64,000 nucleotides of DNA, from IMG/VR virus record IMGVR_UViG_3300007171_000004, positions 1 through 64,000 of that record; one strand, given 5' to 3'. The DNA is from a virus (taxonomy: Duplodnaviria; Caudoviricetes). A model generated the notes under the pieces. It was not told where the DNA came from, did not search any database, and saw only the letters and a list, made by a program, of their open reading frames with translations. Numbering within the stretch: the first letter of the stretch is position 1; each line of letters opens with the position of its first letter. This document shows positions 19,013-64,000 of this stretch, one piece after another. Position numbers and translations under genes: made by a program.

Positions 19013-19303
19013 CTACTTTTCACTTCTCCAAGTTCCGCCTTTTGATTTGTAACGACGAGCTGCGCTTGCATTCGAATAAGCACTAGGGTGCGTATCATAT
19101 GTTCTTTTCGCCCAAGCCTGACATTCTGCCCAAAGAGAAGGATCGTTAGGCACATTCTTGCCAGATTTCTTCTTCTTTTTCTTGGATAACTTAACAAAAA
19201 TCTCATGTAATGCATCAGCTTCTACATGTAAGCCATTTTCTTCTAATTCTTCTAAAACATTATTAATTTGAGCTAAAATCGTCCTCATCATCATACCCCT
19301 CAT
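19013..19303 (-). CDS. Small basic phage protein with N-terminal leader motif (start probably at one of the MMM codons, 19288-19294)
   Basis: Leader LEELEENGLHVEADAL...VKLS; C-terminal HPSAYSNASAARRYKSKGGTW motif common in large phages. Confidence 0.65.
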   Translation of the reverse strand: MRGMMMRTILAQINNVLEELEENGLHVEADALHEIFVKLSKKKKKKSGKNVPNDPSLWAECQAWAKRTYDTHPSAYSNASAARRYKSKGGTWRSEK

Positions 19304-20096
19304 AATTATTCTCTTCGTAATATTTTTGCTTCTTATAATCTTCTAAATTTGTTTGTCCGACCATAGATTGTATTCTCATAGTTTTCATAAGATCTACAAT
19401 ATTTTCAGGAACTTCAAACAAACCTAACATAGATGGTGCAATATGTATGAAATTATCTTCTAACCCAATATAAGAAGACAATAATTCCGGTTGTTTAAAA
19501 TTCGGATCCATACTAAATGTTTCTTCTTGATATAGTTGTAATTGCTTTGGTCTTAAATCAATACCTACAGCCTTTGCAACACCCTCAGCATCTTCTTGGC
19601 TTGAAAATGTAACAATCTGACCCTTATATTTAAATAAACCTGTAGGACCTTCCAAGACATAAAGATCGTTAGGATGCATTACATATCCAGCATCCATACC
19701 CTTATCAAGCTTTTTATTATTAGCTATATCTGCATCAGGGTAAACAATCTTAAATTTATAACCAATATCTCTAGAGGTCATTCTTTCAACTGTAATATTT
19801 TCAACCCCGGTAATATAACTAGCTTTTTCCAGCACTTCTTTATATTGTTCAGGATTATCAATAGAAGAATTTTGAACTAATAATACATCTCCATTAGCAT
19901 CAATAAGTTCTTTGCCATTAGATGCATCAACAAGAACATTTACATTAATCTTGAAATCATCGTTTGGTTCGCTCATACCTAATGGATCTTCTTCTGACAT
20001 TTGTGCCTCAATCAATTTTATCACAATATCAGATTTCTTGAACAAACCTTTGGCATCTAAATTATGAGCTAGGATAATGTATTTTTTGTAGTTCAT
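19263..20096 (-). CDS. Acidic hypothetical protein with N-terminal leader motif
   Basis: 277-aa ORF starting LAHNLDAKGLFKKSD...IEAQ. Confidence 0.65.
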   Translation of the reverse strand: MNYKKYIILAHNLDAKGLFKKSDIVIKLIEAQMSEEDPLGMSEPNDDFKINVNVLVDASNGKELIDANGDVLLVQNSSIDNPEQYKEVLEKASYITGVENITVERMTSRDIGYKFKIVYPDADIANNKKLDKGMDAGYVMHPNDLYVLEGPTGLFKYKGQIVTFSSQEDAEGVAKAVGIDLRPKQLQLYQEETFSMDPNFKQPELLSSYIGLEDNFIHIAPSMLGLFEVPENIVDLMKTMRIQSMVGQTNLEDYKKQKYYEENNYEGYDDEDDFSSN

Positions 20097-20860
20097 TTCC
20101 TATGCAATCCCTCGCTGTCAATTGTCTTCCAAATTCCTAAAAGAGTTGAAGATAATGTAGCAGGATCGTCTTTAATAGCAATAATTTGATCTTTATTAGC
20201 CATAACATTTCTTGCAAATCTAGCTGCTAATTCCATACTGTCTGAAGTTGTATCTGAATCTCTTCCTACAGTTGTTCTTAAAAATTTATCTCTATCTTCG
20301 GCTTTTAGGTTATTCTTTTTGGAAACTGCACTAATAGCTTGTTGAACTTCTGGGGCAATATTAGGATCTGCAAAATGAATTACAATAGTGTCAACATGAA
20401 TTGCTAACATTTGAACATTTGTAGCAACCTTAAAAGAAATCGGAAGTTCTGTCTGTATGTTTTGAAGTTTTTTCCCAAGATCATAAAGAGTTTGAACAAG
20501 TCCTTGAAAATCCTCTAATGGGTTCTGGGCTGTAAAATAAACCTTGTAATTTCTAGCATTTTCAGGTTTCTTCTTACCTTTTAAACTAAATTGCGACCAA
20601 GAGTTTTCCCCATAAAAAGACCAGTTAGAAGACAATAATCCAGCCACTTGTTTTAAGGAGTTCATCCAAAGAGATTTCCATGCATCTTTATCAAAATTCT
20701 TGTCTTGAAATAATTGCTTTTTGACAGATTTTCTTTGGGTAAAATGATCATAAGTTGCGTCTTTAATCATTACTTCAGCAGCAAAAGGTTGAGTTTCTAA
20801 AAAATTTACAACCTTTGTTGCCCATTCTTGATGGTTATTTTGAGCGAGTTTATACCACAT
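20093..20860 (-). CDS. Hypothetical protein with MWYKLAQ leader (weak resemblance to HopA1-like domain)
   Basis: MWYKLAQ start; NYKVYFT...FKV...DTIVIHF pattern; ATGA-type overlap with the next gene. Confidence 0.6.
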   Translation of the reverse strand: MWYKLAQNNHQEWATKVVNFLETQPFAAEVMIKDATYDHFTQRKSVKKQLFQDKNFDKDAWKSLWMNSLKQVAGLLSSNWSFYGENSWSQFSLKGKKKPENARNYKVYFTAQNPLEDFQGLVQTLYDLGKKLQNIQTELPISFKVATNVQMLAIHVDTIVIHFADPNIAPEVQQAISAVSKKNNLKAEDRDKFLRTTVGRDSDTTSDSMELAARFARNVMANKDQIIAIKDDPATLSSTLLGIWKTIDSEGLHRK

Positions 20861-20882
20861 TATTATCTTTCCTTAATAACTT

Positions 20883-21584
20883 TTATATATCCATTTTAAG
20901 CTGTGATTTGTCTTCTGGTTTTGGTTCTGGTTGTTTTTGTTCTGGAAGTTTATGCACCACTCTAACGTGTTGGCTTTGATCAATTCGTGGATTACCCCAA
21001 GAGTCCCATCTAGCTTTAGGTAATTTTTTCATTGCTTGTGGTTCTGTAATTTCTTCTTTCTTCCATCTTCTATCATCACCAAATTCATTCCATTCGAGAG
21101 TATGAGGTTTGCCGAATACTTTGTTTCTAGCTTTTAAGGCAGTGTTTGAATGGACTTCTCCGATAATAAATTTAGCATCTGGAAAATGTTCAGCTATGTA
21201 ATCTTTTGCTAATTTGTAAAGATATTGTCCAAGACCCCATCCACTTCTTTTGGATTCTACATCTTCACCAGCAAGATCGTTAATTTCCATAGAATCTTCA
21301 AGGCCCAATTCATCAATTTTAATTCTATAAATACTAACAATTGGATATGGAAGCTTACCCTCTATTGAATTAGAAAAAGCAGGGTAATAATTGAACATTA
21401 TATCGCCTATTTCTTGATTATTGCTATAGAGTCTGATAACTACTGGTATTGTTGGGTCTTGTTCATATTTATTGGTCCATACTGTATGTCTTAAGTTATC
21501 TTCTATATTGAATCTTGTTTTGGGCATATCCATTCTCATTTGCCCTGCAGGATCCATTCTGAGTTGAGCAAGCCTATACCACAT
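20883..21584 (-). CDS. Putative GNAT-fold protein with MWYRLAQ leader
   Basis: MWYRLAQ start; KRSGWGLGQYLYKLA resembles the GNAT acetyl-CoA-binding motif A. Confidence 0.5.
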   Translation of the reverse strand: MWYRLAQLRMDPAGQMRMDMPKTRFNIEDNLRHTVWTNKYEQDPTIPVVIRLYSNNQEIGDIMFNYYPAFSNSIEGKLPYPIVSIYRIKIDELGLEDSMEINDLAGEDVESKRSGWGLGQYLYKLAKDYIAEHFPDAKFIIGEVHSNTALKARNKVFGKPHTLEWNEFGDDRRWKKEEITEPQAMKKLPKARWDSWGNPRIDQSQHVRVVHKLPEQKQPEPKPEDKSQLKMDI

Positions 21585-22159
21585 TATTTGCCTTTGAGAT
21601 TATCCGAAACTGATCTACCAGCCTCCCAATTTTTGCATGACCAGTAACGAGCTTTCCACTTAGGACCCGGATTATCGCAATTGTGTCTGGCTCTAAAGTT
21701 TTTTCTGCGCTCTGGATTGTCTCTTTTTATGCTAAGTCCGGGATCGCCAAAATTCACCTTAACAATATTCCCTTTATCGTTTTTAACATATACTGAGAAC
21801 TTTTTAGGACCATTTGGAGTGCGGAAAGGCTTATTTAGTGGTTTATTATCGTATTTGCCAGCTTCAATTATTTTTTTTTTGGAAGATGCGGTTTTTTCAT
21901 CTTCAAAATATTCGCAAGCGGACATAGCACTCTCAAATCCCATGTTCTTGAGCTTCGAAACAAGGGATCCAAAATTCTTGAAGCGATTAGGCATTTTATC
22001 CATAACTTCTCTTGCCATCTCTTCATAATCAGCATCTGTCATTTTCTTAGCTGTATGGGTATGGGCAATTTTTTCCATTGTTTCAAGAAGATCGTCGGCA
22101 TCAGCATGTAATCCTCTGGCATCTAATTCTCTTGCAATCTGGGCTAAAACTTTTAACAT
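21584..22159 (-). CDS. Basic phage protein with leader motif and conserved C-terminal VNFGDP...RRKNFRARHNC...YWSC domain
   Basis: Start reassigned from the GTG at 22201 to the ATG at 22159 (GGAG SD upstream, leader begins there). The C-terminal domain is widespread in large phages. Confidence 0.7.
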   Translation of the reverse strand: MLKVLAQIARELDARGLHADADDLLETMEKIAHTHTAKKMTDADYEEMAREVMDKMPNRFKNFGSLVSKLKNMGFESAMSACEYFEDEKTASSKKKIIEAGKYDNKPLNKPFRTPNGPKKFSVYVKNDKGNIVKVNFGDPGLSIKRDNPERRKNFRARHNCDNPGPKWKARYWSCKNWEAGRSVSDNLKGK

Positions 22160-22255
22160 ATAATTTCTCCGAAAGGGTTTGATTTTAATTTCCTTGTACA
22201 CACTCTATAAATCCTGCTCATAGGAAGAAATTAGCTTGTAAAAGAAAAATATATT

Positions 22256-23028: not shown

Positions 23029-24453
23029 ATGACAAGAGAAGCTATTTTAAGAGATCTGGAAAAAATGATCAGAGAATGTGAAAAAAATGAAGATTTCGTA
23101 ACAGCTTCTGAACTTGATGAATTGTTTGTAAAAATTGCTGGAAGTAAATTTGACAAGTACTTTTTTCCTGCGGTTTTAGGTCTTGGGGCTGCTGGTGGGC
23201 TTTATAGACAATTACAGGATAATCAACCATTAGATTATAAACCGATTGCTGCTATTGTTTCTGCTCCGGGCATGGGTAGAAAACTTGCCAAAGATCCTAA
23301 TGTTCTTATGAATTGGAAGAAATTTTTAGAAGAGAATAATCTTTTAGTTGAGGGTAGTCCGACATATGATTTGGATGAGATTGAAGCTACCAAAGAATTT
23401 CAAGATAGTGTTAAGTTAATTCCTGATGGTTCTTTAGGCCCACAAACTCTTAAGGCTGCTTTTGATTTAAATCCTAATTCACAATATCTTAAGAACATTA
23501 TCCAATATTTAAAATCTGTCCAAGAAGCTCCAAGATCTGTTCCTCAAACCCAACAAGCTCCTCAGGCTCCAATGCAAGTAGAAGCTCCAAGACAAGAAAA
23601 GACAATTGAAACCTTAGCTCCTGAGAAACCAATAAAGAAGATCAAAGAAGTTAAGGAAGAAAAAGAAGAAGCGCCAAAGAAGAAGCAAAAATTAAATATC
23701 AAACAAAGATCTAAAATTGCTTGGGATGCTCCTGTTGATGAGGTTTATAAGCAATATTTCCCTTTAAGATTTGATTTAGAGGGTGACGTATCTGATTGGA
23801 AGTATGATCGTGGTGGTTTAACAAAGCGTGGTATTACTCAAGTTGTTGTTAAAAAATACTTCCCAGGCAAAAAAGTTACAGATTTAAATAACGAACAATT
23901 AGAGTTTATTGCAAGATCTGAATTTAATAGAACAATGAGAGCTGGTTTACCTAATAATACTGGTGTTTCTATGGCTGACTTTGACTTTAATAGTGGGATG
24001 AGACATACAAATACTGTGATGAGAAGAACCTTAAGGGATATGTTTGGTATTCCTCTTAAAGCTATGATGGTAAAAGGCACATTAATGTCAAGAGTTGAGC
24101 CTGAAAGAAGAATATTAGAGAAGATTATCAAGCAGAGAGTTAATTCACAGCAAGAAGATGAAAAATTAGCTGAAATCTTTAATCTTAACAGGAATTTATT
24201 TTACACTCAAGAATGTCCAGGAATGATTGTAAGTAATCCTGGAGTTCTTTCTAGACCTGATGACATTGCTGAGTTGACCGGAAGTGATATTAATATTGAA
24301 AAGCATGATGATAAGTTCGTCAATGTTCGTAAAAAGGGTACGCCATTAAAGAAAACATTTAAGATGCGAAGAAAGATGCTACCTAGTATTTCAAGAGCAT
24401 TATTAAAAGAAAGACAAGACGCTTTAAAACAGTGGAAGAAACAACAAAACTAA
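23029..24453 (+). CDS. Putative virion-associated lysozyme: leader, hydrophobic segment, PG-binding motif, GH108-like domain
   Basis: PDGSLGPQT peptidoglycan-binding motif; LEGDVSDWKYDRGGLTKRGITQ matches the GH108 E-G...D-x-GG-x-T-x-x-GIT signature. Confidence 0.65.
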   Translation: MTREAILRDLEKMIRECEKNEDFVTASELDELFVKIAGSKFDKYFFPAVLGLGAAGGLYRQLQDNQPLDYKPIAAIVSAPGMGRKLAKDPNVLMNWKKFLEENNLLVEGSPTYDLDEIEATKEFQDSVKLIPDGSLGPQTLKAAFDLNPNSQYLKNIIQYLKSVQEAPRSVPQTQQAPQAPMQVEAPRQEKTIETLAPEKPIKKIKEVKEEKEEAPKKKQKLNIKQRSKIAWDAPVDEVYKQYFPLRFDLEGDVSDWKYDRGGLTKRGITQVVVKKYFPGKKVTDLNNEQLEFIARSEFNRTMRAGLPNNTGVSMADFDFNSGMRHTNTVMRRTLRDMFGIPLKAMMVKGTLMSRVEPERRILEKIIKQRVNSQQEDEKLAEIFNLNRNLFYTQECPGMIVSNPGVLSRPDDIAELTGSDINIEKHDDKFVNVRKKGTPLKKTFKMRRKMLPSISRALLKERQDALKQWKKQQN

Positions 24454-24767
24454 AAAATATCATAGATTACTTCACTGACAGAGGATGGGTATTTTCTCAT
24501 AGGGATTTATCTTTATTTTTCAGTTTATCAGAGTCTTTTAGTTTTACAGAAGATGATATTGAAAGTTTATTGCCTCAAAGATATACTAGTTCGGTAAGAT
24601 TGTTAAAAAGACTTGATACAGAGAAATGTTATCATCCTAAGGGCTATAAGAAAAAAGTATCCAAATATTACATCTATGATTTTATAATGTCAGCTAAAAA
24701 TAAAAAGCCAAGTGTTATTCTTGGCTTTTTGCATGATAAGATAAATAAGAGTCTTAGATCTTATTAA
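24432..24767 (+). CDS. Hypothetical protein
   Basis: 111-aa ORF filling the gap between 24453 and the convergent 24754 gene. Confidence 0.5.
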   Translation: MEETTKLKNIIDYFTDRGWVFSHRDLSLFFSLSESFSFTEDDIESLLPQRYTSSVRLLKRLDTEKCYHPKGYKKKVSKYYIYDFIMSAKNKKPSVILGFLHDKINKSLRSY

Positions 24768-27700
24768 TAACATATTCAAGAATTTTTATCAAATCTGCTT
24801 GAATTTTTGGAGACCTAATATGGTCAGGATTTTTTCTATAAATCTTAAAAGTTGTTTTTAGATCTAATTCTTCTTTAGGAATGGCTTCTTGAAGAAAATC
24901 TATAGGAGCTAAAGCTAAAAGATCATAGAAATTCAATAACTCACTTTTTTTGTATTCATTTAGTAATTTAATCAATTCTTCCCTAGGAATATTATAAGTA
25001 GTTTGAAATCCAGGTGTAAAAGCTTGATTCGCTTCTGTAGATTTTAAAGTATATTGATTTTCACTATCTCTTATGTAATAATCTGCAAATTTTCTCCATT
25101 GTCTTTGTGAATGAAATGGATTTGAAGGCGTTGGATTATTATTTCCTACTGGTTTTATTTCATTTTTTGGAAGTGTATTGCTACCAAAATTGACCATTCT
25201 TCCCAATCCATTAAAACTTTCAAAATAATCTAAGTAAATATTGTTAATAGCCTCTTTTACTTGTGGAGTCAATCCAGGTTTAAATTCCATAGAGTCAACA
25301 ACAATAGTAGATCCACTTTCAGATTCCCAGCAATAAGATTGAGCATACATTTCATTTTTTTTATTTAGTATCACGAAAAGGGCTGATTTTGGAGATAATT
25401 GAGAATCAAAAGCACAAGATTGAGCATAATGATAAAGGGTTTGACAACAGCCTGTAAATTTTCCAGCAAACATAATCCTTGTGTCATTTTTAGGAAGAAA
25501 TTTAGCTGTAAATCCATTTTGTGTTATGACATTTCTAGCCCAAAGAGGAAGAGGCATGCTTTTGGACATTTTATACCAATTCTCCATGTCAGAATATTTA
25601 AAGCCTCTTTTAATTGTGTCATCGTATTTAGGATTTGTTTTGTCAGCTGATTTAAGAAATTCTACTGCAAAATCTTCATCTTCATAATCGCCATGTTCTT
25701 CAGAAAAATTAATTAATCTTACAGCAAATTCAAGCTTTTTAATATCAGCTTTATTTTTAATATGTTCAGATACTTTAGCCGTTACTCCATCAAAAGTGAT
25801 TTCATCATTCCACATGCCTGAAAGAAATAGGGCTGAATCTCTTGTAGATCTGAGGATGTTATTAAGTAAAAAATCTCTTATTTCTGGATTAAATTCTTTT
25901 ACTGTTGGAAGAAAAACTGTTTTATCATGTAAATTTTGAGCTGGATATCTTCTTAAATAACTTATTGTCATCTTACCAAATATCATAAAAGCATTACCAA
26001 TATAATTTAAATCTTCATTTTTTATGGTACTTGGGTTAATATTAGCTTCTTGTAAATAATTTAGAAGATCTTGAATTCCAGATTGTGGTAGATTTTGTAA
26101 AGCATCAAAATTAGAAGAAATGATAGTTAGATATGTATCTTTAACATCCTGTCTTTTTGGAACAGTATATTCTCCATCAGCATCTTTAACTAGAAAACTA
26201 TTTTTAATTTTAGTTTCTTGTAATTTTTCTTTCGCTTCTTTAAAGTACATATCGAATGCTTTTTGAATTCTTTGAGCATTATCCGCTGAACTATAAGAAG
26301 ATAACGTAATATTTGCTTTTTTAATACAGTAATTAAATAAAAAATCTTGCTCTCCTGCAGAAAATTCTTTCAATAAGTACATAAGATTATCAGAGTTAAT
26401 ATATGTTATTAGACTTTGTGATGTCTCAAAATTGGAAAATAATTTATTTGAAAATCTGGAATCAACATATTCTTTTACGTAATTGATATCTTCTGCTGGT
26501 ATTTTGAACATTCTTATAAAATTAAGATTACCATATTTTTGATCACGGTAGAGAATCTTAGCACTATCTAATATATAATCAGCAATTTCATTTCTTATTT
26601 TATTAAAATCTATTGCGTTAAGACCATAATAAAGCAAAGTTGATATATCTTGCCCAGAGTCAATGAAATGTTTAATTCCAAATAAAATACCAGGATAAAA
26701 ATTTAAAGCATCAAAGTCGTATGGTTCCATCTTTTCGTAAATAGATTTTAATGATGGATATTTACTTACTACTAAATCAATAATAAAATCTTTATTATTT
26801 GAATATTTATCATATGACTTGATACTGTCTAAATTATCAATCAGTTTATTATTTAAAACATACTCATAAACTTTGGTATTTGTTGAAGCAAAAGCTACAA
26901 AATCTATAATATTCTTTGAAAGTCTATCAAATTTTTCAAGCTTATAATATTCATTTGAACTTAACAAATCTATTGCATATGATAAAATATATGCAGAATC
27001 TGTCTTGTCAATCAATTTTTTTACATCACTTATATTTACATATGTTCTAGAATATGTAATTGCTGCAAGTAAAAGTTCTATTTTATTTGATGGAATACTT
27101 TTCAAACCATCAGTAATTGCTATTTCTCTGATTTTTCTAGGATCAGTAGAATTTGCTTTATAAAATTTAAGATCATTTTTATAAAAATTATATTGAGAAT
27201 ACCTTTCATTGAATAAGTCAGGATATCTTTCTCTTAAACTATAAAAATAATCTTTTTCTGCTTTAGTATTCCCATGAAAGAAAACGTTTTCATTTTGTTC
27301 TTCAGAGTATTCGAATGAAGAAAAGGATTGATATCTTTCGATAAAATCCCATTCCTCTAACAAATACCCAACTAAATTATTTTCAAATAAAAATTTAACA
27401 CCATAAGAAAGTGCAACATTTTTTAATTCTTGAACAAACTTGGTGTAAAGTATATCCCAATCTTTATATTGATCAGGAAGAGTTGCTCCTGTTTTGTCAA
27501 AGTAAGCAATTACACCTGACCAATAATCTTTAAATCTTTCAAACTGCTTATTTACTATTTCTTTAATCTTAGGACTTTCAAAAACTTCATTTCTAAAAGT
27601 GTTGATTTCTTTGACATATTCTTTTAATCTAGCTAAAATATTTTGAAAATTTGAATCAATATCTGAGAGAAAGCTATATATATAATCCACAAGAGCAGAA

Positions 27701-28233
27701 TCAGTGTTAACAATTTTTAAATCATATTTTAACAGATTCAATATCCATGATTTTGCTTTTTGTTCATCATTCCAATAATTTTCTCTAATAAGGTTTAAGC
27801 TATATTTTAAACTATCATAATAATCAACTTCATCACCTTCAAACATTGGGTCTTGCAATTGTCTATAAATTGTGTGATCATAATTCAATTGAGGAATATT
27901 TAATTGCAAATTTCCAGTTTGATGTGTAATGATGTTAGAATCTGAATATTGAGGAAATTCATAATAAGCTTCATGTTCTTGAGGGCCTACTGTTGAATCT
28001 GCCATAAAATAATCTGGACTGTATATGAGATCAGGAGAAGTTTCAGTATTTGCATCATGAGCAGCTTTTAAATGATTAAATAACTCATCCTGGCCCTCTT
28101 CTTCTTTTTCTGCAAATCTTAAGTTACTAGAGGACTGTGCTAAAGAAAATGCAACTTCTGAAAATATAAAGTCGCCATGTTTATCAAGAGTTTCAGCTAA
28201 TCTGATATATTTTAAAGCTTTGTTAGTTTTCAT
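24754..28233 (-). CDS. Large (1159 aa) hypothetical protein with leader motif; probable internal virion protein
   Basis: Leader LAETLDKHGDF...SLAQ; long helical body; C-terminal GKFTGCCQ...AQSYCW...VVDSME domain. Confidence 0.7.
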   Translation of the reverse strand: MKTNKALKYIRLAETLDKHGDFIFSEVAFSLAQSSSNLRFAEKEEEGQDELFNHLKAAHDANTETSPDLIYSPDYFMADSTVGPQEHEAYYEFPQYSDSNIITHQTGNLQLNIPQLNYDHTIYRQLQDPMFEGDEVDYYDSLKYSLNLIRENYWNDEQKAKSWILNLLKYDLKIVNTDSALVDYIYSFLSDIDSNFQNILARLKEYVKEINTFRNEVFESPKIKEIVNKQFERFKDYWSGVIAYFDKTGATLPDQYKDWDILYTKFVQELKNVALSYGVKFLFENNLVGYLLEEWDFIERYQSFSSFEYSEEQNENVFFHGNTKAEKDYFYSLRERYPDLFNERYSQYNFYKNDLKFYKANSTDPRKIREIAITDGLKSIPSNKIELLLAAITYSRTYVNISDVKKLIDKTDSAYILSYAIDLLSSNEYYKLEKFDRLSKNIIDFVAFASTNTKVYEYVLNNKLIDNLDSIKSYDKYSNNKDFIIDLVVSKYPSLKSIYEKMEPYDFDALNFYPGILFGIKHFIDSGQDISTLLYYGLNAIDFNKIRNEIADYILDSAKILYRDQKYGNLNFIRMFKIPAEDINYVKEYVDSRFSNKLFSNFETSQSLITYINSDNLMYLLKEFSAGEQDFLFNYCIKKANITLSSYSSADNAQRIQKAFDMYFKEAKEKLQETKIKNSFLVKDADGEYTVPKRQDVKDTYLTIISSNFDALQNLPQSGIQDLLNYLQEANINPSTIKNEDLNYIGNAFMIFGKMTISYLRRYPAQNLHDKTVFLPTVKEFNPEIRDFLLNNILRSTRDSALFLSGMWNDEITFDGVTAKVSEHIKNKADIKKLEFAVRLINFSEEHGDYEDEDFAVEFLKSADKTNPKYDDTIKRGFKYSDMENWYKMSKSMPLPLWARNVITQNGFTAKFLPKNDTRIMFAGKFTGCCQTLYHYAQSCAFDSQLSPKSALFVILNKKNEMYAQSYCWESESGSTIVVDSMEFKPGLTPQVKEAINNIYLDYFESFNGLGRMVNFGSNTLPKNEIKPVGNNNPTPSNPFHSQRQWRKFADYYIRDSENQYTLKSTEANQAFTPGFQTTYNIPREELIKLLNEYKKSELLNFYDLLALAPIDFLQEAIPKEELDLKTTFKIYRKNPDHIRSPKIQADLIKILEYVINKI

Positions 28234-28314
28234 AGGGGAGAGTTTCCATACTAATATTTCAAATTCTTAGCATATGATATCCTTGTACAATAGGGATAGA
28301 GGTAGGATACAACT

Positions 28315-30108: not shown

Positions 30109-30481
30109 ACATCATGTTTAGTCTATACTTTGTCTGATTTAAAATTGCAAGCATTTCATCTCTAATATTCAATAAATCTGTGTCTTTTTCAGAATCTAAT
30201 GAACTAGTGACATAATCTTGCAAATAAGAGATAAATTCATCAACAAAATCCATATGATCGTCCTTAAGATTTTGACAAATAACTGTAAAGTTTCCCTTAG
30301 CTAAAATTGCACCCTTTTTACCCTGATAAATCTCAATAAAATCGTCAATTAGTGGATCAAGTTCTTCATAAGCTGTTCCAAAAGCCATGTGTTGAGCATA
30401 ACTTCCAGGCTTCTTTTGTGTTTGCCAATGATAAACTCTCAATTGGTTCTGTAAAGTCAAAAAATTAGTTACAAAATTCAT
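30107..30481 (-). CDS. Dps/ferritin-like four-helix protein (phage DUF5856-like)
   Basis: HWQT...YAQHMAFG.AYEEL...IDDFIE and NIRDEM ferroxidase-type ligands. Confidence 0.75.
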   Translation of the reverse strand: MNFVTNFLTLQNQLRVYHWQTQKKPGSYAQHMAFGTAYEELDPLIDDFIEIYQGKKGAILAKGNFTVICQNLKDDHMDFVDEFISYLQDYVTSSLDSEKDTDLLNIRDEMLAILNQTKYRLNMM

Positions 30482-31170
30482 TTTTTTATTTCCTCATAAT
30501 TTTTACTAACTAACTTCCAATTGATAACCTTGAACCAATTAGTTAGATATTTTTCTCTATTATTCTGATATTTGAGATAATAAGCATGTTCCCATACGTC
30601 ACATCCCAATAAAGGTGTTCCGCATCCTGCAATATGTGGGTTCATTTGATTAGGCATTCCTGTAATCATCAACTTATTTTCATTATTTAAACAAAGCCAA
30701 ACCCATCCAGAACCAAATTGCTTTAAACCTTTATCAATAAACTCTTCTTTAAATTTCTGGAAACTACCAAAGTCTTTATCAATATCTTCTTTGAGTTTAC
30801 CTAGAGGTTCTTGATTCGTATCAGGGGACATTGTTACCCAGAAAAATGAGTGATTGAAATGTCCACCTGCATTATCTTTAAATTGTTCTCTTTGCTTTGC
30901 TGGAATCTGATCTAAGTCTTGTAATAATTCTACAAGAGTTTTATTTTTTAATGATTTTTTAGCATCTAGAACTTCCACCATCTTGTCAACATATTTTTGA
31001 TGATGTTTAGTGTGATGAACTCGCATTGTCGTGGAATCAATAACAGGCTCCAAGGCAGAATATGAGTAAGGAAGATCAGGCAGCTCAAACCCAAAATCTT
31101 CAATCTTTTCAATTTCTTTTTTCCCAGCAAGTTTAAGTAAATTTATATGGTTAGCAAAATAATCTCTCAT
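30478..31170 (-). CDS. sodA: Fe/Mn superoxide dismutase, probably Mn-type, with N-terminal extension
   Basis: LPDLPYSYSALEP, HHTKHH, NAGGHFNH, FGSGWVWL, DVWEHAYY. GGH plus NQ are the Mn-SOD-type signature. Confidence 0.9.
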   Translation of the reverse strand: MRDYFANHINLLKLAGKKEIEKIEDFGFELPDLPYSYSALEPVIDSTTMRVHHTKHHQKYVDKMVEVLDAKKSLKNKTLVELLQDLDQIPAKQREQFKDNAGGHFNHSFFWVTMSPDTNQEPLGKLKEDIDKDFGSFQKFKEEFIDKGLKQFGSGWVWLCLNNENKLMITGMPNQMNPHIAGCGTPLLGCDVWEHAYYLKYQNNREKYLTNWFKVINWKLVSKNYEEIKK

Positions 31171-31616
31171 CCTTTTTGAACTCCTATGGTTACTGGTCCG
31201 CCTTCAGGATCTGCCATTTGAGGAATTGTTAAACCTACAGTACCAGTTAAATTCACAGCAGCATTTAAGCCAGAATTAGGATTGACATTTCCAACACCAC
31301 ATGCAATAATTTGATCTACTGAAGGGTCATATCCATGTTCTCTCATCCAATTTGCGAGTTCATTTTCGGATACTGAATTACCGCCTCCGACATCAAAGTA
31401 TTGTTTACCATCTTGAAAAACACCATGTAACACTAAGAACTTTTTACCGTCTGTTGTAGTAAATTCTAATGGATTATGGGATTGTAGAGATTGCTGGATC
31501 TTAGTTGCAGTAGGAAAGTCAACTTGAAACCCAGATCCTTCCATTATAGAGCTTGGCTTGTTCTCTAAGGCAATGTTTTGAGTTGGAGCTAAAGATTTTG
31601 AAATTTTATACCACAT
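31167..31616 (-). CDS. Hypothetical protein with MWYK leader
   Basis: MWYKISKS start; coupled to the SOD gene by an ATGA-type overlap. Confidence 0.6.
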   Translation of the reverse strand: MWYKISKSLAPTQNIALENKPSSIMEGSGFQVDFPTATKIQQSLQSHNPLEFTTTDGKKFLVLHGVFQDGKQYFDVGGGNSVSENELANWMREHGYDPSVDQIIACGVGNVNPNSGLNAAVNLTGTVGLTIPQMADPEGGPVTIGVQKG

Positions 31617-34488: not shown

Positions 34489-34567
34489 AATTTTTCCTTA
34501 AACCTATAACTAGATAATAGGCTTGTACAAGAGGATTAGACCGTTTAAAATAAAAAGGCTTCATAAA

Positions 34568-55875: not shown

Positions 55876-56068
55876 AAGTTATCTTTGTACCTTTTGTTTT
55901 TTGTACAATCTGCTTGTTTTTTTCTATTGGTTAAAGGGAAAATCCTATGAACCCAGAAAAAGGTATTTAAATTCCTCATTAAGAATAAAATTGAGGAAAA
56001 CAATAAAAAAATTTATTAAAGGTTTTCGATCCGTTTTTTTCTTCGAAGAGAAACAAGGAGTAAAATAT

Positions 56069-60453: not shown

Positions 60454-60509
60454 AAAAAAATCTCCCAAAACGATTAGCTTTAGGAGATTTGTACAATTTA
60501 AGATCTTTT

Positions 60510-61094
60510 TTAAGGTATTTTAGCAAGTTCTGTAGAAATTTGACCCATTTGAGTTGGACTAATTCCTAAAGCTGGTAAAATTGTTGCAATGTTTGTACCT
60601 GAAGTTTTAATTAATGTAGCTAATTCATTGTAGAATTCTTGCATTTTTGTTGGATCACTAGACCTTACAGCTAAATCATATAAACTCTTAGCTTTTCTAA
60701 ATTCAGGAAAACCAGCTAATGTTCTTGTACCTTGCTCAAGAATTTTTCTATTTTGTTGATCGATTAAATTCTGTTGTTGGTCAGGAGTTAAAGTTGAGAC
60801 AGTTCTTGGATCTTGCATGGTATAGAAAAATTCGTCTGGAGTTTTAGGAGTATTGCCAGTAGGATCAATATAAGAACCTTGATAAGGATTCAGACCATAA
60901 TTACCTCTACCTGCTTGTCCACCTAGATATGTATTTAAAGATCCACCAATATTATTAGGATCCATAATATATCCACCAATACCATAATTTTGAGCAGTTT
61001 TAATTAATTGGCTGTCAATCTTATCAGCTGCATAGAATTGGCCTTTTTGATCTAATTGTTTAGCCTTTTTGATATTATTTGAGGGGGATTCCAT
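60510..61094 (-). CDS. Gly/Gln-rich hypothetical protein with leader motif
   Basis: AKQLDQKGQFYAADKID..LIKTAQ leader. Confidence 0.65.
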   Translation of the reverse strand: MESPSNNIKKAKQLDQKGQFYAADKIDSQLIKTAQNYGIGGYIMDPNNIGGSLNTYLGGQAGRGNYGLNPYQGSYIDPTGNTPKTPDEFFYTMQDPRTVSTLTPDQQQNLIDQQNRKILEQGTRTLAGFPEFRKAKSLYDLAVRSSDPTKMQEFYNELATLIKTSGTNIATILPALGISPTQMGQISTELAKIP

Positions 61095-61839
61095 ATTTAC
61101 TAGCTGTCTCCTGTAATTTTTGGGTCAAGACTGATGCTTTTTGTTGATCTGTGTAATCTTTACTATTAATTGTGTTATAAATCATTTCCCAAATAGGCTT
61201 GAAATCTGGGACTTGAACTTCTGCTTGAGCAGTTTTGATATTATCTTCGGTTGCATCATTAAGTTTTTTAAGGCCTCCAGAATGTCCATAACCTGTATAC
61301 TTTGGGACATATTGAGACATAGGAATATCACCAAAATTAGGGCCTTTTGTTAATCCACCAAATGTAGGGGCTGTTCCTGTAAATGTAACATCAGCATTAC
61401 CACCATAAATTGGGTCGCCCTTCATTTTCTTTTGGATTTGTTTAGGAGTAGGAGTATTCATCTTTTGAGCAGCATTAACGGCAACCCCAGCTCTAGCAGC
61501 AAAATCTGCAATCCAGCCTATATTCTGCAAACCTTGAATTTTAGGCAAAAGTTTACCAATAAGATCAGGAATATGAGTGGCTTCATAGATTTTTTCTAAT
61601 TGAGAAACAACAGTCTTTTGCTTTTCTGTTAATGTATTTGGAATTTCAATTTTATTAATTTCAACTAATAATGCTTGCAAAACAGCTGGATCAAATTTAA
61701 ATAATTCTGTTTTTAAGGCTGTTGGATCTTTGATTTGTAATACTCTTTGAAGATCTGCTGCAGTTTGATTTTGAGCAATTTTCATTTCCAATTCATGCAA
61801 CATATTATCAATTTTAATTAATTCAGCTGTTTTATCCAT
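61075..61839 (-). CDS. Hypothetical protein with short leader ending MKIAQ
   Basis: 254-aa ORF; TAATG coupling with the upstream gene. Confidence 0.65.
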   Translation of the reverse strand: MDKTAELIKIDNMLHELEMKIAQNQTAADLQRVLQIKDPTALKTELFKFDPAVLQALLVEINKIEIPNTLTEKQKTVVSQLEKIYEATHIPDLIGKLLPKIQGLQNIGWIADFAARAGVAVNAAQKMNTPTPKQIQKKMKGDPIYGGNADVTFTGTAPTFGGLTKGPNFGDIPMSQYVPKYTGYGHSGGLKKLNDATEDNIKTAQAEVQVPDFKPIWEMIYNTINSKDYTDQQKASVLTQKLQETASKYGIPLK

Positions 61840-63110
61840 TATTTTTTGCCTCTAGCATTTTCATAAATTTCTTTGAGTCTTTTGTTTTTTTCCATTTTCC
61901 CGAGAGTATTTAATGTGTTATTTAAAATTTTGATTAATTGAGACTCGAGCTTGCAAAAGACACCATTAAGTTGAGAACCATCATATATAAAATATCTTGA
62001 TAGTTCTGTAAGCTTATAAAATTCTTTAAAAGGTACAACTTCTACTTCAGGTCTTTTATTTTTCATGGAATCGTTAATTTTATCTATTTCTTCATTTATA
62101 TCTTTAAGGATTTTTTCATATTCTTCATTGTCTTTACTAGTCAAAGTTCCAGCTGTAAATTTATCATCTCTTTGTTTGATAAACATATTTCTTTCGGTTT
62201 CAAGTTTATGTCTTTGTCTAATCAATAATTCTGGATTAGCTTTAACCTGAAGCAAAGGATATCTTAGAATATTAGTAATTTCTTTAGCACCATATTTCTG
62301 CAATTCTGGCATTTGAGCAATTTTTTCTAAGGAACTCATGATTGATTGAACATCTGCGGTATTCCAAACTACAACTTTATCCTTAACTGGCATTACAGCT
62401 GTAGGGTTACCAAAAGGGTCCGTGATAGTACCTCTATCACGCTTAAAATCACCCAATGGACTTCCTGTGGCAGATGCAGGATCATACACTTGAGTATTAG
62501 GATCTGTAGGACCCAATCTATCAGGAGGTGTTAAACCTACTAATCTCTGTAAAGGAGCTAAAGGACTCCTATTTCCTCTATATGTATCTTGAGAAATTGT
62601 AAATATTTTCTTCTTGAAGTAAATTTGAGCATATCCTGTCAAGTTAGTCAATAGATTTTGGATAAATACTTCTTCCTCAATAATACAACCGTCTTTTTTA
62701 GGTTTATCTGGATCTTCATCTTCTTCTGTCGGCTTATATAAATCTAATTCACCCCCTGGAGGTCTTACAATTAAATCGGAAGGACCTTCATTAGGATCTC
62801 TTCTTTCTAATTGATCTAGTGGTATCAAATCTTTATCTGTTGTGTTTGGCGTTGGTGTAGAAGGAGGTTTAGGAGTTGAATTAGGTTTAGGGCTTGGTGT
62901 AGGCGATGTTGGATTACTGCCAGATTGATCATTTGTAGTTTTAAATGCTTCCTGTAGAGCTTCACGGTCAGGATGCATTTCACCCATTGAACCCCATAAT
63001 TCACGAAATTTTAATCGTGGATTCGGTGCAGCTTGTAAAATGGTTAAAAATTCATTATATTTAGCCATATCAAGACTAATTCTAATAGATGCTGCTAATT
63101 TGTACCACAT
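61839..63110 (-). CDS. Hypothetical protein with MWYKLA leader and Pro/Thr linker
   Basis: MWYKLAAS start; PTSPTPSPKPNSTPKPPSTPTP linker. Confidence 0.7.
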   Translation of the reverse strand: MWYKLAASIRISLDMAKYNEFLTILQAAPNPRLKFRELWGSMGEMHPDREALQEAFKTTNDQSGSNPTSPTPSPKPNSTPKPPSTPTPNTTDKDLIPLDQLERRDPNEGPSDLIVRPPGGELDLYKPTEEDEDPDKPKKDGCIIEEEVFIQNLLTNLTGYAQIYFKKKIFTISQDTYRGNRSPLAPLQRLVGLTPPDRLGPTDPNTQVYDPASATGSPLGDFKRDRGTITDPFGNPTAVMPVKDKVVVWNTADVQSIMSSLEKIAQMPELQKYGAKEITNILRYPLLQVKANPELLIRQRHKLETERNMFIKQRDDKFTAGTLTSKDNEEYEKILKDINEEIDKINDSMKNKRPEVEVVPFKEFYKLTELSRYFIYDGSQLNGVFCKLESQLIKILNNTLNTLGKMEKNKRLKEIYENARGKK

Positions 63111-63122
63111 AGATTTTCTTCC

Positions 63123-64000
63123 TTACCAATCAACTGTAGAATATTTCTCTGGATGGTCTGCACAATCCTTTGTAATAATAATCTTCTTTGGCTTGGCAGA
63201 ATGTGGTCCAATATGTTCAAAAGCTGCAAAACTTACAGATCTTTTCACCATATTATTTAAAGCTCTTGTACCTGTCCCCATGGCTTCAACTTTGCTTACA
63301 ATATCTTCAATGAACTCTTCGTCAAATTCTAATTCAATTCCATGTTCAGCAAAAAGAATCTGTTGTTTATTAATAGGAGAATTATCAAGGTCTAACAAAC
63401 ATTGAGTCAATTCTTCTTTTGTAAGTGGAGCAAGAATGACAACTGTTTGAATTCTTCCTACAAATTCAGCAGCCAAACCATAATCAATTAAAGATTCGTT
63501 TAAGATTTCGTGTGTAGCAAGACCAAGAATTTCATGAGGCTTTAAATCATTTTTTGACTTCTCATCATTCTTTGTGAAACCAATATTTTTGTTATGAATC
63601 TTAAGTTTTTCAGCTACAATATCAGATAATCCGTTAAATGCTCCTCCAAAACAAAATAGCATCCTAGCAGTGTCAACAAATGTAGCTGGACCACCCTGAT
63701 CACCTAAAATAGAGGATGGAATTTTAACTTTCTTACCTTCAATTAATTTAAGCATAGAGAACTGAGTATTGGTGTTTAAAGATTCAATTTTAGATTTACT
63801 AGAATTTCCAGCAAGTTTATCAATTTCATCAATAAAAACTATTCCTCTTTCAGCACTATCAATATCGCCTTGGGTTTTTAGAAACAGCTCATGAATAACA
63901 GAATCTGCATCTGCTCCTTGAAAACCTGTTGGAGAATAAGCTGTAGCATCTCCAATTACAAATGGCACTTCAAGATCATTGGCAATTGATGTGGTGATTA
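63123..64000 (-). CDS. clpX: ClpX-family AAA+ unfoldase, 5' part beyond the window
   Basis: Frame is open to the window edge (ITTSIANDLEVPFVIGDAT); Walker B IVFIDEIDK, FGGAF.GL, IGF loop, EFVGRI and sensor-II GTRAL. Confidence 0.88.
   Translation of the reverse strand, partial: ITTSIANDLEVPFVIGDATAYSPTGFQGADADSVIHELFLKTQGDIDSAERGIVFIDEIDKLAGNSSKSKIESLNTNTQFSMLKLIEGKKVKIPSSILGDQGGPATFVDTARMLFCFGGAFNGLSDIVAEKLKIHNKNIGFTKNDEKSKNDLKPHEILGLATHEILNESLIDYGLAAEFVGRIQTVVILAPLTKEELTQCLLDLDNSPINKQQILFAEHGIELEFDEEFIEDIVSKVEAMGTGTRALNNMVKRSVSFAAFEHIGPHSAKPKKIIITKDCADHPEKYSTVDW

Follow-up and report, generated by a model that had tools for sequence, protein, structure and literature searches.

An M-W-Y-K/R tag at the N terminus of unrelated proteins in an uncultured huge phage: a clade-specific, portable peptide with a candidate role in capsid loading

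The closest described counterpart of the peptide reported here is the capsid-targeting sequence (CTS) of phage T4, which by itself brings foreign proteins into the head, where the head protease removes it (PMC9026906, PMC9958956). Ten residues are enough for head loading, with residues 4 and 7 used for targeting and residues 8 and 10 for processing (PMC9026906). We analyzed a stretch of 64,000 nucleotides (hereafter the window), the first 64 kb of the 300,536-bp virus record IMGVR_UViG_3300007171_000004 (32.8% G+C, estimated to be 84% complete), which comes from an uncultured phage whose portal has its best match in the portal of Bacillus phage G (30% identity). Four genes of the window begin with Met-Trp-Tyr followed by Lys or Arg, and this MWY tag resembles the T4 CTS of IPII and IPIII (MKTYQEFIAE, confirmed twice in the T4 genome) in being a short N-terminal peptide on unrelated proteins with aromatic residues at key positions.

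The two peptides also differ in several respects. They have no sequence similarity; the MWY tag has four to six fixed residues versus ten in the T4 CTS, its candidate cut site is K/R-x-A versus [LI]-x-E, and it is found on about 10 genes per genome versus about 3. A loose CTS pattern matched two genes in this genome, neither of them CTS-like, and no S77 (gp21) protease (PF03420) was detected in it by a search that does find gp21 in T4. Judged by this comparison, the MWY tag would act in the manner of the T4 CTS and is not a member of the CTS family.

Packaged or codelivered proteins of other kinds offer further points of comparison. T4 Alt, a host-modifying ADP-ribosyltransferase with terminal propeptides, is packaged in the head and later ejected from it (PMC9026906). 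The MWY protein starting at 271239 in the present genome is similar in carrying an ART-PolyVal domain, whereas the Alt propeptides follow the cleavage logic of gp21. In phiKZ-like jumbo phages such as SPN3US, many packaged proteins are trimmed by the prohead protease (PMC10052503, PMC7411985). These phages represent a clade different from that of the MWY phage. The propeptides of SPN3US-type ejection and inner-body proteins are long, are not known to have a single short tag in common, and are cut at A/S/G-x-E. Additionally, Iyer et al. reportedly described polyvalent proteins of phages and conjugative elements in 2017 and proposed their delivery with DNA; their payload domains overlap those found here (ART-PolyVal, with weak matches to LPD26 and LPD1), but the modules are joined in one giant fusion there and are separate, individually tagged genes in the MWY phage.

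The sequence ATG-TGG-TAY occurs four times on the two strands of the window, each time opening a long open reading frame (ORF) on the minus strand. The four genes and their payloads, meaning the proteins behind the tags, are listed below, with model confidence given as the predicted local distance difference test (pLDDT).

20093-20860, minus strand: 255-aa gene, with MWYKLAQ as codons 1 to 7 (20840-20860); payload 1, predicted HopA1/phospho-lyase-like fold (AlphaFold2 model, Foldseek)
20883-21584, minus strand: 233-aa gene, with MWYRLAQ as codons 1 to 7 (21564-21584); payload 2, predicted GNAT-fold acyltransferase-like protein (model pLDDT 72, Foldseek)
31167-31616, minus strand: 149-aa gene, starting with MWYKISK (31596-31616); payload 3, no assigned fold; overlaps the start of a superoxide dismutase gene
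61839-63110, minus strand: 423-aa gene, starting with MWYKLAA (63090-63110); payload 4, J-domain-like, with HPD near residue 46

An earlier note on this DNA had pointed out these four starts, with coordinates and sequences that proved correct, and had considered four Trp-Tyr pairs at positions 2 and 3 very unlikely by chance. The counts bear this out. In the window, ATGTGGTAYMR was observed 4 times against a mean of 0.30 in dinucleotide-preserving shuffles, and none of the 100 shuffles reached 4. When the count was extended to the whole genome and compared with chance expectation, as the earlier note had proposed, the enrichment of MWY starts was again strong: 10 ORFs start with MWY[KR][LIFK][AS], the six outside the window at 196296, 270234, 271239, 272914, 273818, and 278323, while only about 0.14 genes with W-Y at positions 2 and 3 would be expected among 272 crude genes (Poisson P of ~7e-16 for ten). 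The sole further MWY start in the genome belongs to a 4-codon ORF. A near-variant differing by one residue, MWIKLAK, opens a 90-aa ORF just beyond the window (65684-65956, plus strand).

The ten proteins behind these starts are otherwise unrelated, as had been claimed for the first four. With the tags stripped, all-against-all BLASTP gave no mutual matches, the single exception being a domain common to the 21584 and 271239 proteins (E value of 2e-15), which supports the view of a portable peptide tag on unrelated proteins. The constraint acts on the peptide and not on the DNA, because codons 4 to 6 vary synonymously and the upstream regions are dissimilar. Codon 4 of the ten tags is AAA, AGG, AGA, or CGA; codon 5 is CTC, CTT, ATT, TTA, ATC, ATA, TTC, or AAA; codon 6 is GCT, GCA, TCA, or TCT; and no shared sequence was found upstream of the ten starts.

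This phage and its relatives together provide 83 distinct MWY tags. Lys or Arg stands at position 4 in 81 of them, whereas Ala occupies position 6 in 56 and Gln occupies position 7 in 28. An A-[QSAG] junction falls between residues 6 and 7 in 36 tags, between residues 8 and 9 in 12, and between residues 9 and 10 in 2; the other 33 have none within the first ten residues. The fixed core is therefore M-W-Y-K/R, and the K-x-A-Q continuation is frequent but not obligatory. The earlier note had seen the starts converging on a K-x-A-Q box and had taken them for a 7-aa version of a long leader that occurs on neighboring genes. The first idea holds as far as K/R-x-A followed by Q, S, or A is the common form; the tags do not converge on it reliably, so the MWY tag cannot be read simply as a shortened long leader, and cleavage stands on less secure ground than targeting. 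In the structure models of both the 20860 and the 21584 proteins, the tag appears as a low-confidence, disordered N-terminal extension. A Sec/Tat or lipoprotein signal was considered and rejected, as polar residues set in from positions 7 to 9 (QNNHQE, QLRMDP, KSLAPT) and there is no Cys.

The same 1,396-aa protease-scaffold protein is encoded by 53 IMG/VR loci. The tag is well kept among homologues. MWY[KR]xAQ is retained in 7 of 8 orthologues of the 20860 protein, MWYR-x-AQ is invariant across 12 aligned sequences of the 21584 protein, and of the 32 further homologues found for the 63110 protein, with identities as low as 51%, 31 open with MWY[KR][LITS]A; in the latter, residues 7 to 15 vary with insertions and deletions behind the constant tag. 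Five long relatives, whose protease-scaffold proteins are 55 to 58% identical, gave 34 matches to the tag pattern versus 2 for a reversed control. One of them, the 358-kb G001, contributes 13 matches, of which all 11 examined are ORF starts, and has five MWY genes in a row with two long-leader genes behind them; in a closer relative, four MWY genes are interleaved with long-leader genes. The content of the arrays differs between relatives. Neither phage G (2 matches, control 2) nor the 485-kb uncultured phage LR745208 showed tag enrichment. We may thus conclude that MWY is a clade-specific, portable N-terminal tag. A literature search for MWYK and MWYR returned nothing relevant.

A profile of the 20860 payload was searched over 1.84 billion representative proteins and gave 83 matches, which allowed us to see what the same payload wears elsewhere. 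Six full-length homologues have WY-type starts (MWYKIAQ, MNWYKIAQ, MNWYKISQ, MWKKIAS, VWYRYS, and MKIYKIAQ), and at least 17 begin with M-x(1-2)-F-x-x-[FWY]-[LI]...E, for example MKLFSEWLIAED and MKTFIQFIES, a pattern that resembles the T4 sequence MKTYQEFIAE; the remaining 52 full-length homologues were left unclassified by tag. The T4-like start recurs on many genes of the contigs that bear such homologues: eight in L010, about five in the 508-kb L014, and about 35 of 555 ORFs (M-x-x-F-K-x-W-L-x-x-E) in G006, an IMG/VR record of 381,443 bp that is 79% complete and has neither MWY tags nor long leaders. On the 9-kb Logan contig L015, six genes start with MNWYK[KIT][AS][QK]. They include a GNAT acetyltransferase and a HopA1-like protein and so repeat the payload pair seen at 20093-21584 in the window; MNWYK is a one-residue-longer form of the tag in related phages. 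All four contigs have the same architecture, one short tag on many proteins, with different tag sequences. By sequence comparison, then, one payload family wears different clade-specific tags, one of which resembles the T4 tag, the only one of its kind whose function is proven. A weak DUF5872 match below the cutoff (E value of 0.007) hints at a T4-like tag on a long-leader payload as well, and BLASTP gave no confirmation.

Pfam and PHROG scans of the four window MWY proteins yielded nothing usable, and the payloads were characterized mainly through structure models and homologues. The AlphaFold2 model of the 20860 protein (pLDDT 79, with residues 1 to 7 below 50) has as its top Foldseek matches HopA1 (4rsw, 4rsx; E value of 3e-4), the lyase domains of class III lanthipeptide synthetases, and the SpvC/OspF phosphothreonine lyases, and an atlas search also pointed to HopA1. 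Phage Mu Mom, Naa60, and RimI are among the GNATs matched by the 21584 model, in which residues 1 to 24 are disordered; when viral contigs were first scanned with this payload, no relatives turned up. The 31616 protein had no match in the atlas search, and its syntenic orthologue in G001 begins with MWYRYSQ. For the 63110 protein, Pfam DnaJ was found in four homologues but not in the window copy itself, and its C-terminal part gave nothing in the atlas search. Outside the window, the tag heads the ART-PolyVal ADP-ribosyltransferase at 271239 and a DnaJ-domain protein, and in relatives it also heads a Nudix-hydrolase-like protein, judged by eye only. As a set the payloads change fast, and they are probably host-takeover proteins (HopA1/phospho-lyase-like, GNAT, J-domain, and ADP-ribosyltransferase). 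The Fe/Mn superoxide dismutase encoded next to payload 3 (30478-31170, minus strand) has a 27-residue N-terminal extension with LLKLAG that resembles some long-leader starts.

The tag is also linked to the head genes, which lie outside the window.

189217-193407: protease-scaffold fusion, 1,396 aa (PHROGs), with a protease domain at residues 54 to 242 (phrog_18299, head-maturation protease)
193488-195734: portal gene (PHROGs)
195919-196296: portal-side MWY gene, 125 aa, directly upstream of the portal gene

The place just upstream of the portal gene is likewise taken by an MWY gene in 41 of the 53 related loci. Across 17 orthologues of the portal-side MWY protein, with a mean identity of only 40%, M1, W2, Y3, L75, and G102 are the only invariant residues, and the distance from the tag to an A-Q/A-S junction ahead of a Gly-rich stretch is variable. 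From this variable spacing, an address and a junction may be two separable parts. Near their C-terminal end, most of these orthologues have an L-P-S-N-x-T motif.

The common tag continuation, K/R-x-A followed by Q, S, or A, is the motif concentrated in the head-gene region. K/R-[TILV]-A-[SQA] occurs at 63 sites in the proteome, 26 of them in the head region, which holds about 6% of the residues, a roughly 10-fold concentration. Seven sites lie within the protease-scaffold protein, and at six of these [KR]-x-A shows little or no variation among 34 distinct orthologues; at two sites, KTA|S and [RK]LA|Q, the motif is fixed while its flanks clearly vary. The 551-aa protein encoded downstream of the protease, which may be the capsid protein, has no match in PDB sequences or cultured phages, so the candidate cut sites of the head protease are not anchored on a solved capsid. 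A strongly conserved 364-aa gene of the head region was considered as the capsid protein and rejected, as it is a UDP-galactopyranose mutase (201940-203034, minus strand; E value of 3e-101 to PDB 1i8t) among the head-region genes.

The other neighbors of the MWY genes are the long-leader genes. A hidden Markov model (HMM) of the leader recognizes 12 such proteins in the genome, 5 in the window and one in the head region, and most long leaders end in the K/R-[TILV]-A-[SQA] motif. The MWY genes are on average 2.7 kb from the nearest long-leader gene versus 13.8 kb under circular shifts (P = 0.03), which agrees with the adjacency that the earlier note had described. The members in the window are as follows.

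19013-19303, minus strand: long-leader gene with a small DUF5872-like payload (leader HMM E value of 2e-12; PHROG 27331)
19263-20096, minus strand: long-leader gene that immediately follows the 255-aa MWY gene on its downstream side (leader HMM E value of 2e-12)
21584-22159, minus strand: long-leader gene with a DUF5754-like domain, at the head of the operon with the two MWY genes (leader HMM E value of 4e-11; Pfam/PHROG)
24754-28233, minus strand: 1,159-aa long-leader protein with a weak match to LPD1, a polyvalent-protein domain (leader HMM)
60510-61094, minus strand: long-leader gene two genes downstream of the 423-aa MWY gene (leader HMM E value of 6e-12)

In the same part of the window, a 474-aa protein (23029-24453, plus strand) combines a leader-like helix ending in VKIA-G with a GH108 lysozyme domain, with a leader HMM score below significance; in a relative, a GH108 gene without a leader is followed by a separate leader gene.

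Upstream of several of these genes we found a recurrent heptamer.

22194-22200, minus strand: TGTACAA, 41 nt ahead of the long-leader/MWY operon, candidate promoter core
22194-22200, 28283-28290, 34523-34530, 55901-55908, and 60489-60496 in the window, and 193478-193484 and 209601-209608 on the contig: TGTACAA copies

Nineteen of 39 oriented copies fall in the 5.7% of the genome that is noncoding, an enrichment of about 8-fold there; the motif is often extended to the palindrome TTGTACAA, and the noncoding copies lie 14 to 77 nt upstream of start codons. It lies ahead of the MWY operon as well as of the protease-scaffold gene and is a candidate promoter core. Elsewhere in the genome (282400-290500), nine palindromic intergenic repeats of about 80 nt, centered on TCGGGGGGTTAACCCCCCGA with AAATAAT / ATTATTT arms, sit between short genes and may act as bidirectional terminators or as regulatory sites in an early region.

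According to these results, we favor the interpretation of the MWY tag as an address for capsid loading, a reading that in our judgment stands about midway between doubt and acceptance. M-W-Y-K/R, usually with a hydrophobic residue and Ala behind it, would dock the tagged protein onto the core of the assembling head, represented here by the 1,396-aa protease-scaffold fusion together with the portal. The W2-Y3 aromatic pair would be the docking determinant, comparable to Y4 and F7 in T4; the capsid would then close around the docked protein, which would reach the host along with the DNA, as T4 internal proteins do by means of their 10-residue CTS; where K/R-x-A is followed by Q, S, or A, the head protease may remove the tag. 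The computed basis of this reading comprises the enrichment, the constraint on the peptide, the portability, the clade distribution, the linkage to head and long-leader genes, and the tag exchange on one payload family, from which we infer docking, packaging, cleavage, and injection of the MWY proteins. A capsid role is supported indirectly because an MWY gene adjoins the portal gene and because the same payload family carries a T4-CTS-like tag elsewhere; moreover, the payload types match known packaged proteins, the ART-PolyVal domain of the 271239 protein having its parallel in T4 Alt, an ADP-ribosyltransferase that is packaged.

Several observations weigh against this interpretation. Cleavage cannot be general, given the 33 of 83 tags without an A-[QSAG] junction. 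The J-domain and Nudix payloads are equally compatible with ordinary cytoplasmic proteins. G006 has no Pfam S77/gp21 protease, no gp23, and no homologue of the protease of the present phage, so the T4-CTS likeness of its tags is one of sequence only. Finally, TGTACAA also precedes DnaK-like and J-domain genes, which makes it weak evidence for co-expression of the MWY and head genes.

Among the alternatives, a docking peptide for a partner outside the capsid, such as the Hsp70/J-protein system of the phage, a modifying enzyme, or another sorting machine, survives best, and we consider it unlikely. A portable, invariant, and disordered tag would suit such a partner, and the phage does encode a DnaK-like protein and several J-domain proteins. 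Against this, no candidate partner gene travels with the tag besides the head and long-leader genes, and both the linkage to the head module and the common K/R-x-A motif favor the head. One class of modifying enzymes can be set aside: no radical-SAM enzyme is encoded, PF04055 having 0 matches in this genome (84% complete) while all 14 control genomes match, and a radical-SAM/SPASM maturase is therefore excluded as the partner.

A main rival, though rather improbable, reads the tag as an N-terminal mark by which an AAA+ unfoldase, be it the ClpX-like protein of the phage with ClpP or that of the host, would recognize takeover proteins for timed degradation or unfolding. The relevant gene adjoins the 63110 MWY gene, and a ClpP gene is present at 294202-294627.

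63123-64000, continuing beyond the window to 64475, minus strand: ClpX-like AAA+ gene (Pfam AAA_2, ClpB_D2-small), directly upstream of the 423-aa MWY gene

The tag lies at a free, disordered N terminus with a hydrophobic-hydrophobic-basic-hydrophobic order, and one class of ClpX N-terminal signals, reportedly described by Flynn et al. in 2003, is said to resemble such a pattern. However, the N-signals known for ClpX are loose, whereas W-Y is invariant here; ClpX-like genes are also found in phage G and in G006, both of which are without MWY tags; and an unfoldase signal leaves the portal-side MWY gene, the clustering with long leaders, and the T4-CTS-like swap unexplained. If the tag addresses an unfoldase or another partner, it would represent a new phage sorting system.

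That the MWY start is a remnant of common ancestry or a recombination or shuffling hotspot without a function of its own, as arrays of differing content among relatives might suggest, is very improbable, because the payload folds differ and the tag stays constant while flanks and synonymous sites drift. A translation-initiation or regulatory RNA element conserved at the nucleotide level, which the exact placement of the motif on start codons could recall, is hardly credible in view of four different Lys/Arg codons, several Leu/Ile/Ala/Ser codons, dissimilar upstream regions, and an MNWYK variant that inserts an Asn codon and keeps the peptide.

The chaperones and proteases of the phage form a sizable set in their own right, with a ClpX-like protein bearing a Cys-rich N terminus, ClpP, a DnaK-like protein, and three or more J-domain proteins, of which two bear the MWY tag. 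Their loci are 63123-64475, 294202-294627, and 67550-68500, and the DnaK-like gene starts at 118607 on the minus strand and encodes the N terminus MPVTVGIDLGTTNS.

Returning to capsid loading, a wider view is possible, which we advance only tentatively: each clade of huge phages may have evolved its own very short N-terminal code that loads a large, quickly exchanged arsenal of host-takeover enzymes into the capsid for injection, with payloads swapping codes between clades. The codes would include MWYK, MNWYK, the T4-like M-x-x-F-x-x-W-L-x-x-E, and the 37-residue long leader, and if this view is true, the injected proteome of uncultured phages would be readable from their gene starts. If the MWY tag is a loading signal, the proteins that an uncultured clade injects, namely, HopA1/phospho-lyase-like proteins, GNATs, ADP-ribosyl transferases, and J-domain proteins, would be predictable from sequence. 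Its length of four to six residues would make it the shortest known tag of this sort, and it might be used to load foreign proteins into heads; capsid-targeting tags would be a general device, repeatedly reinvented in huge phages, and not a peculiarity of T4.

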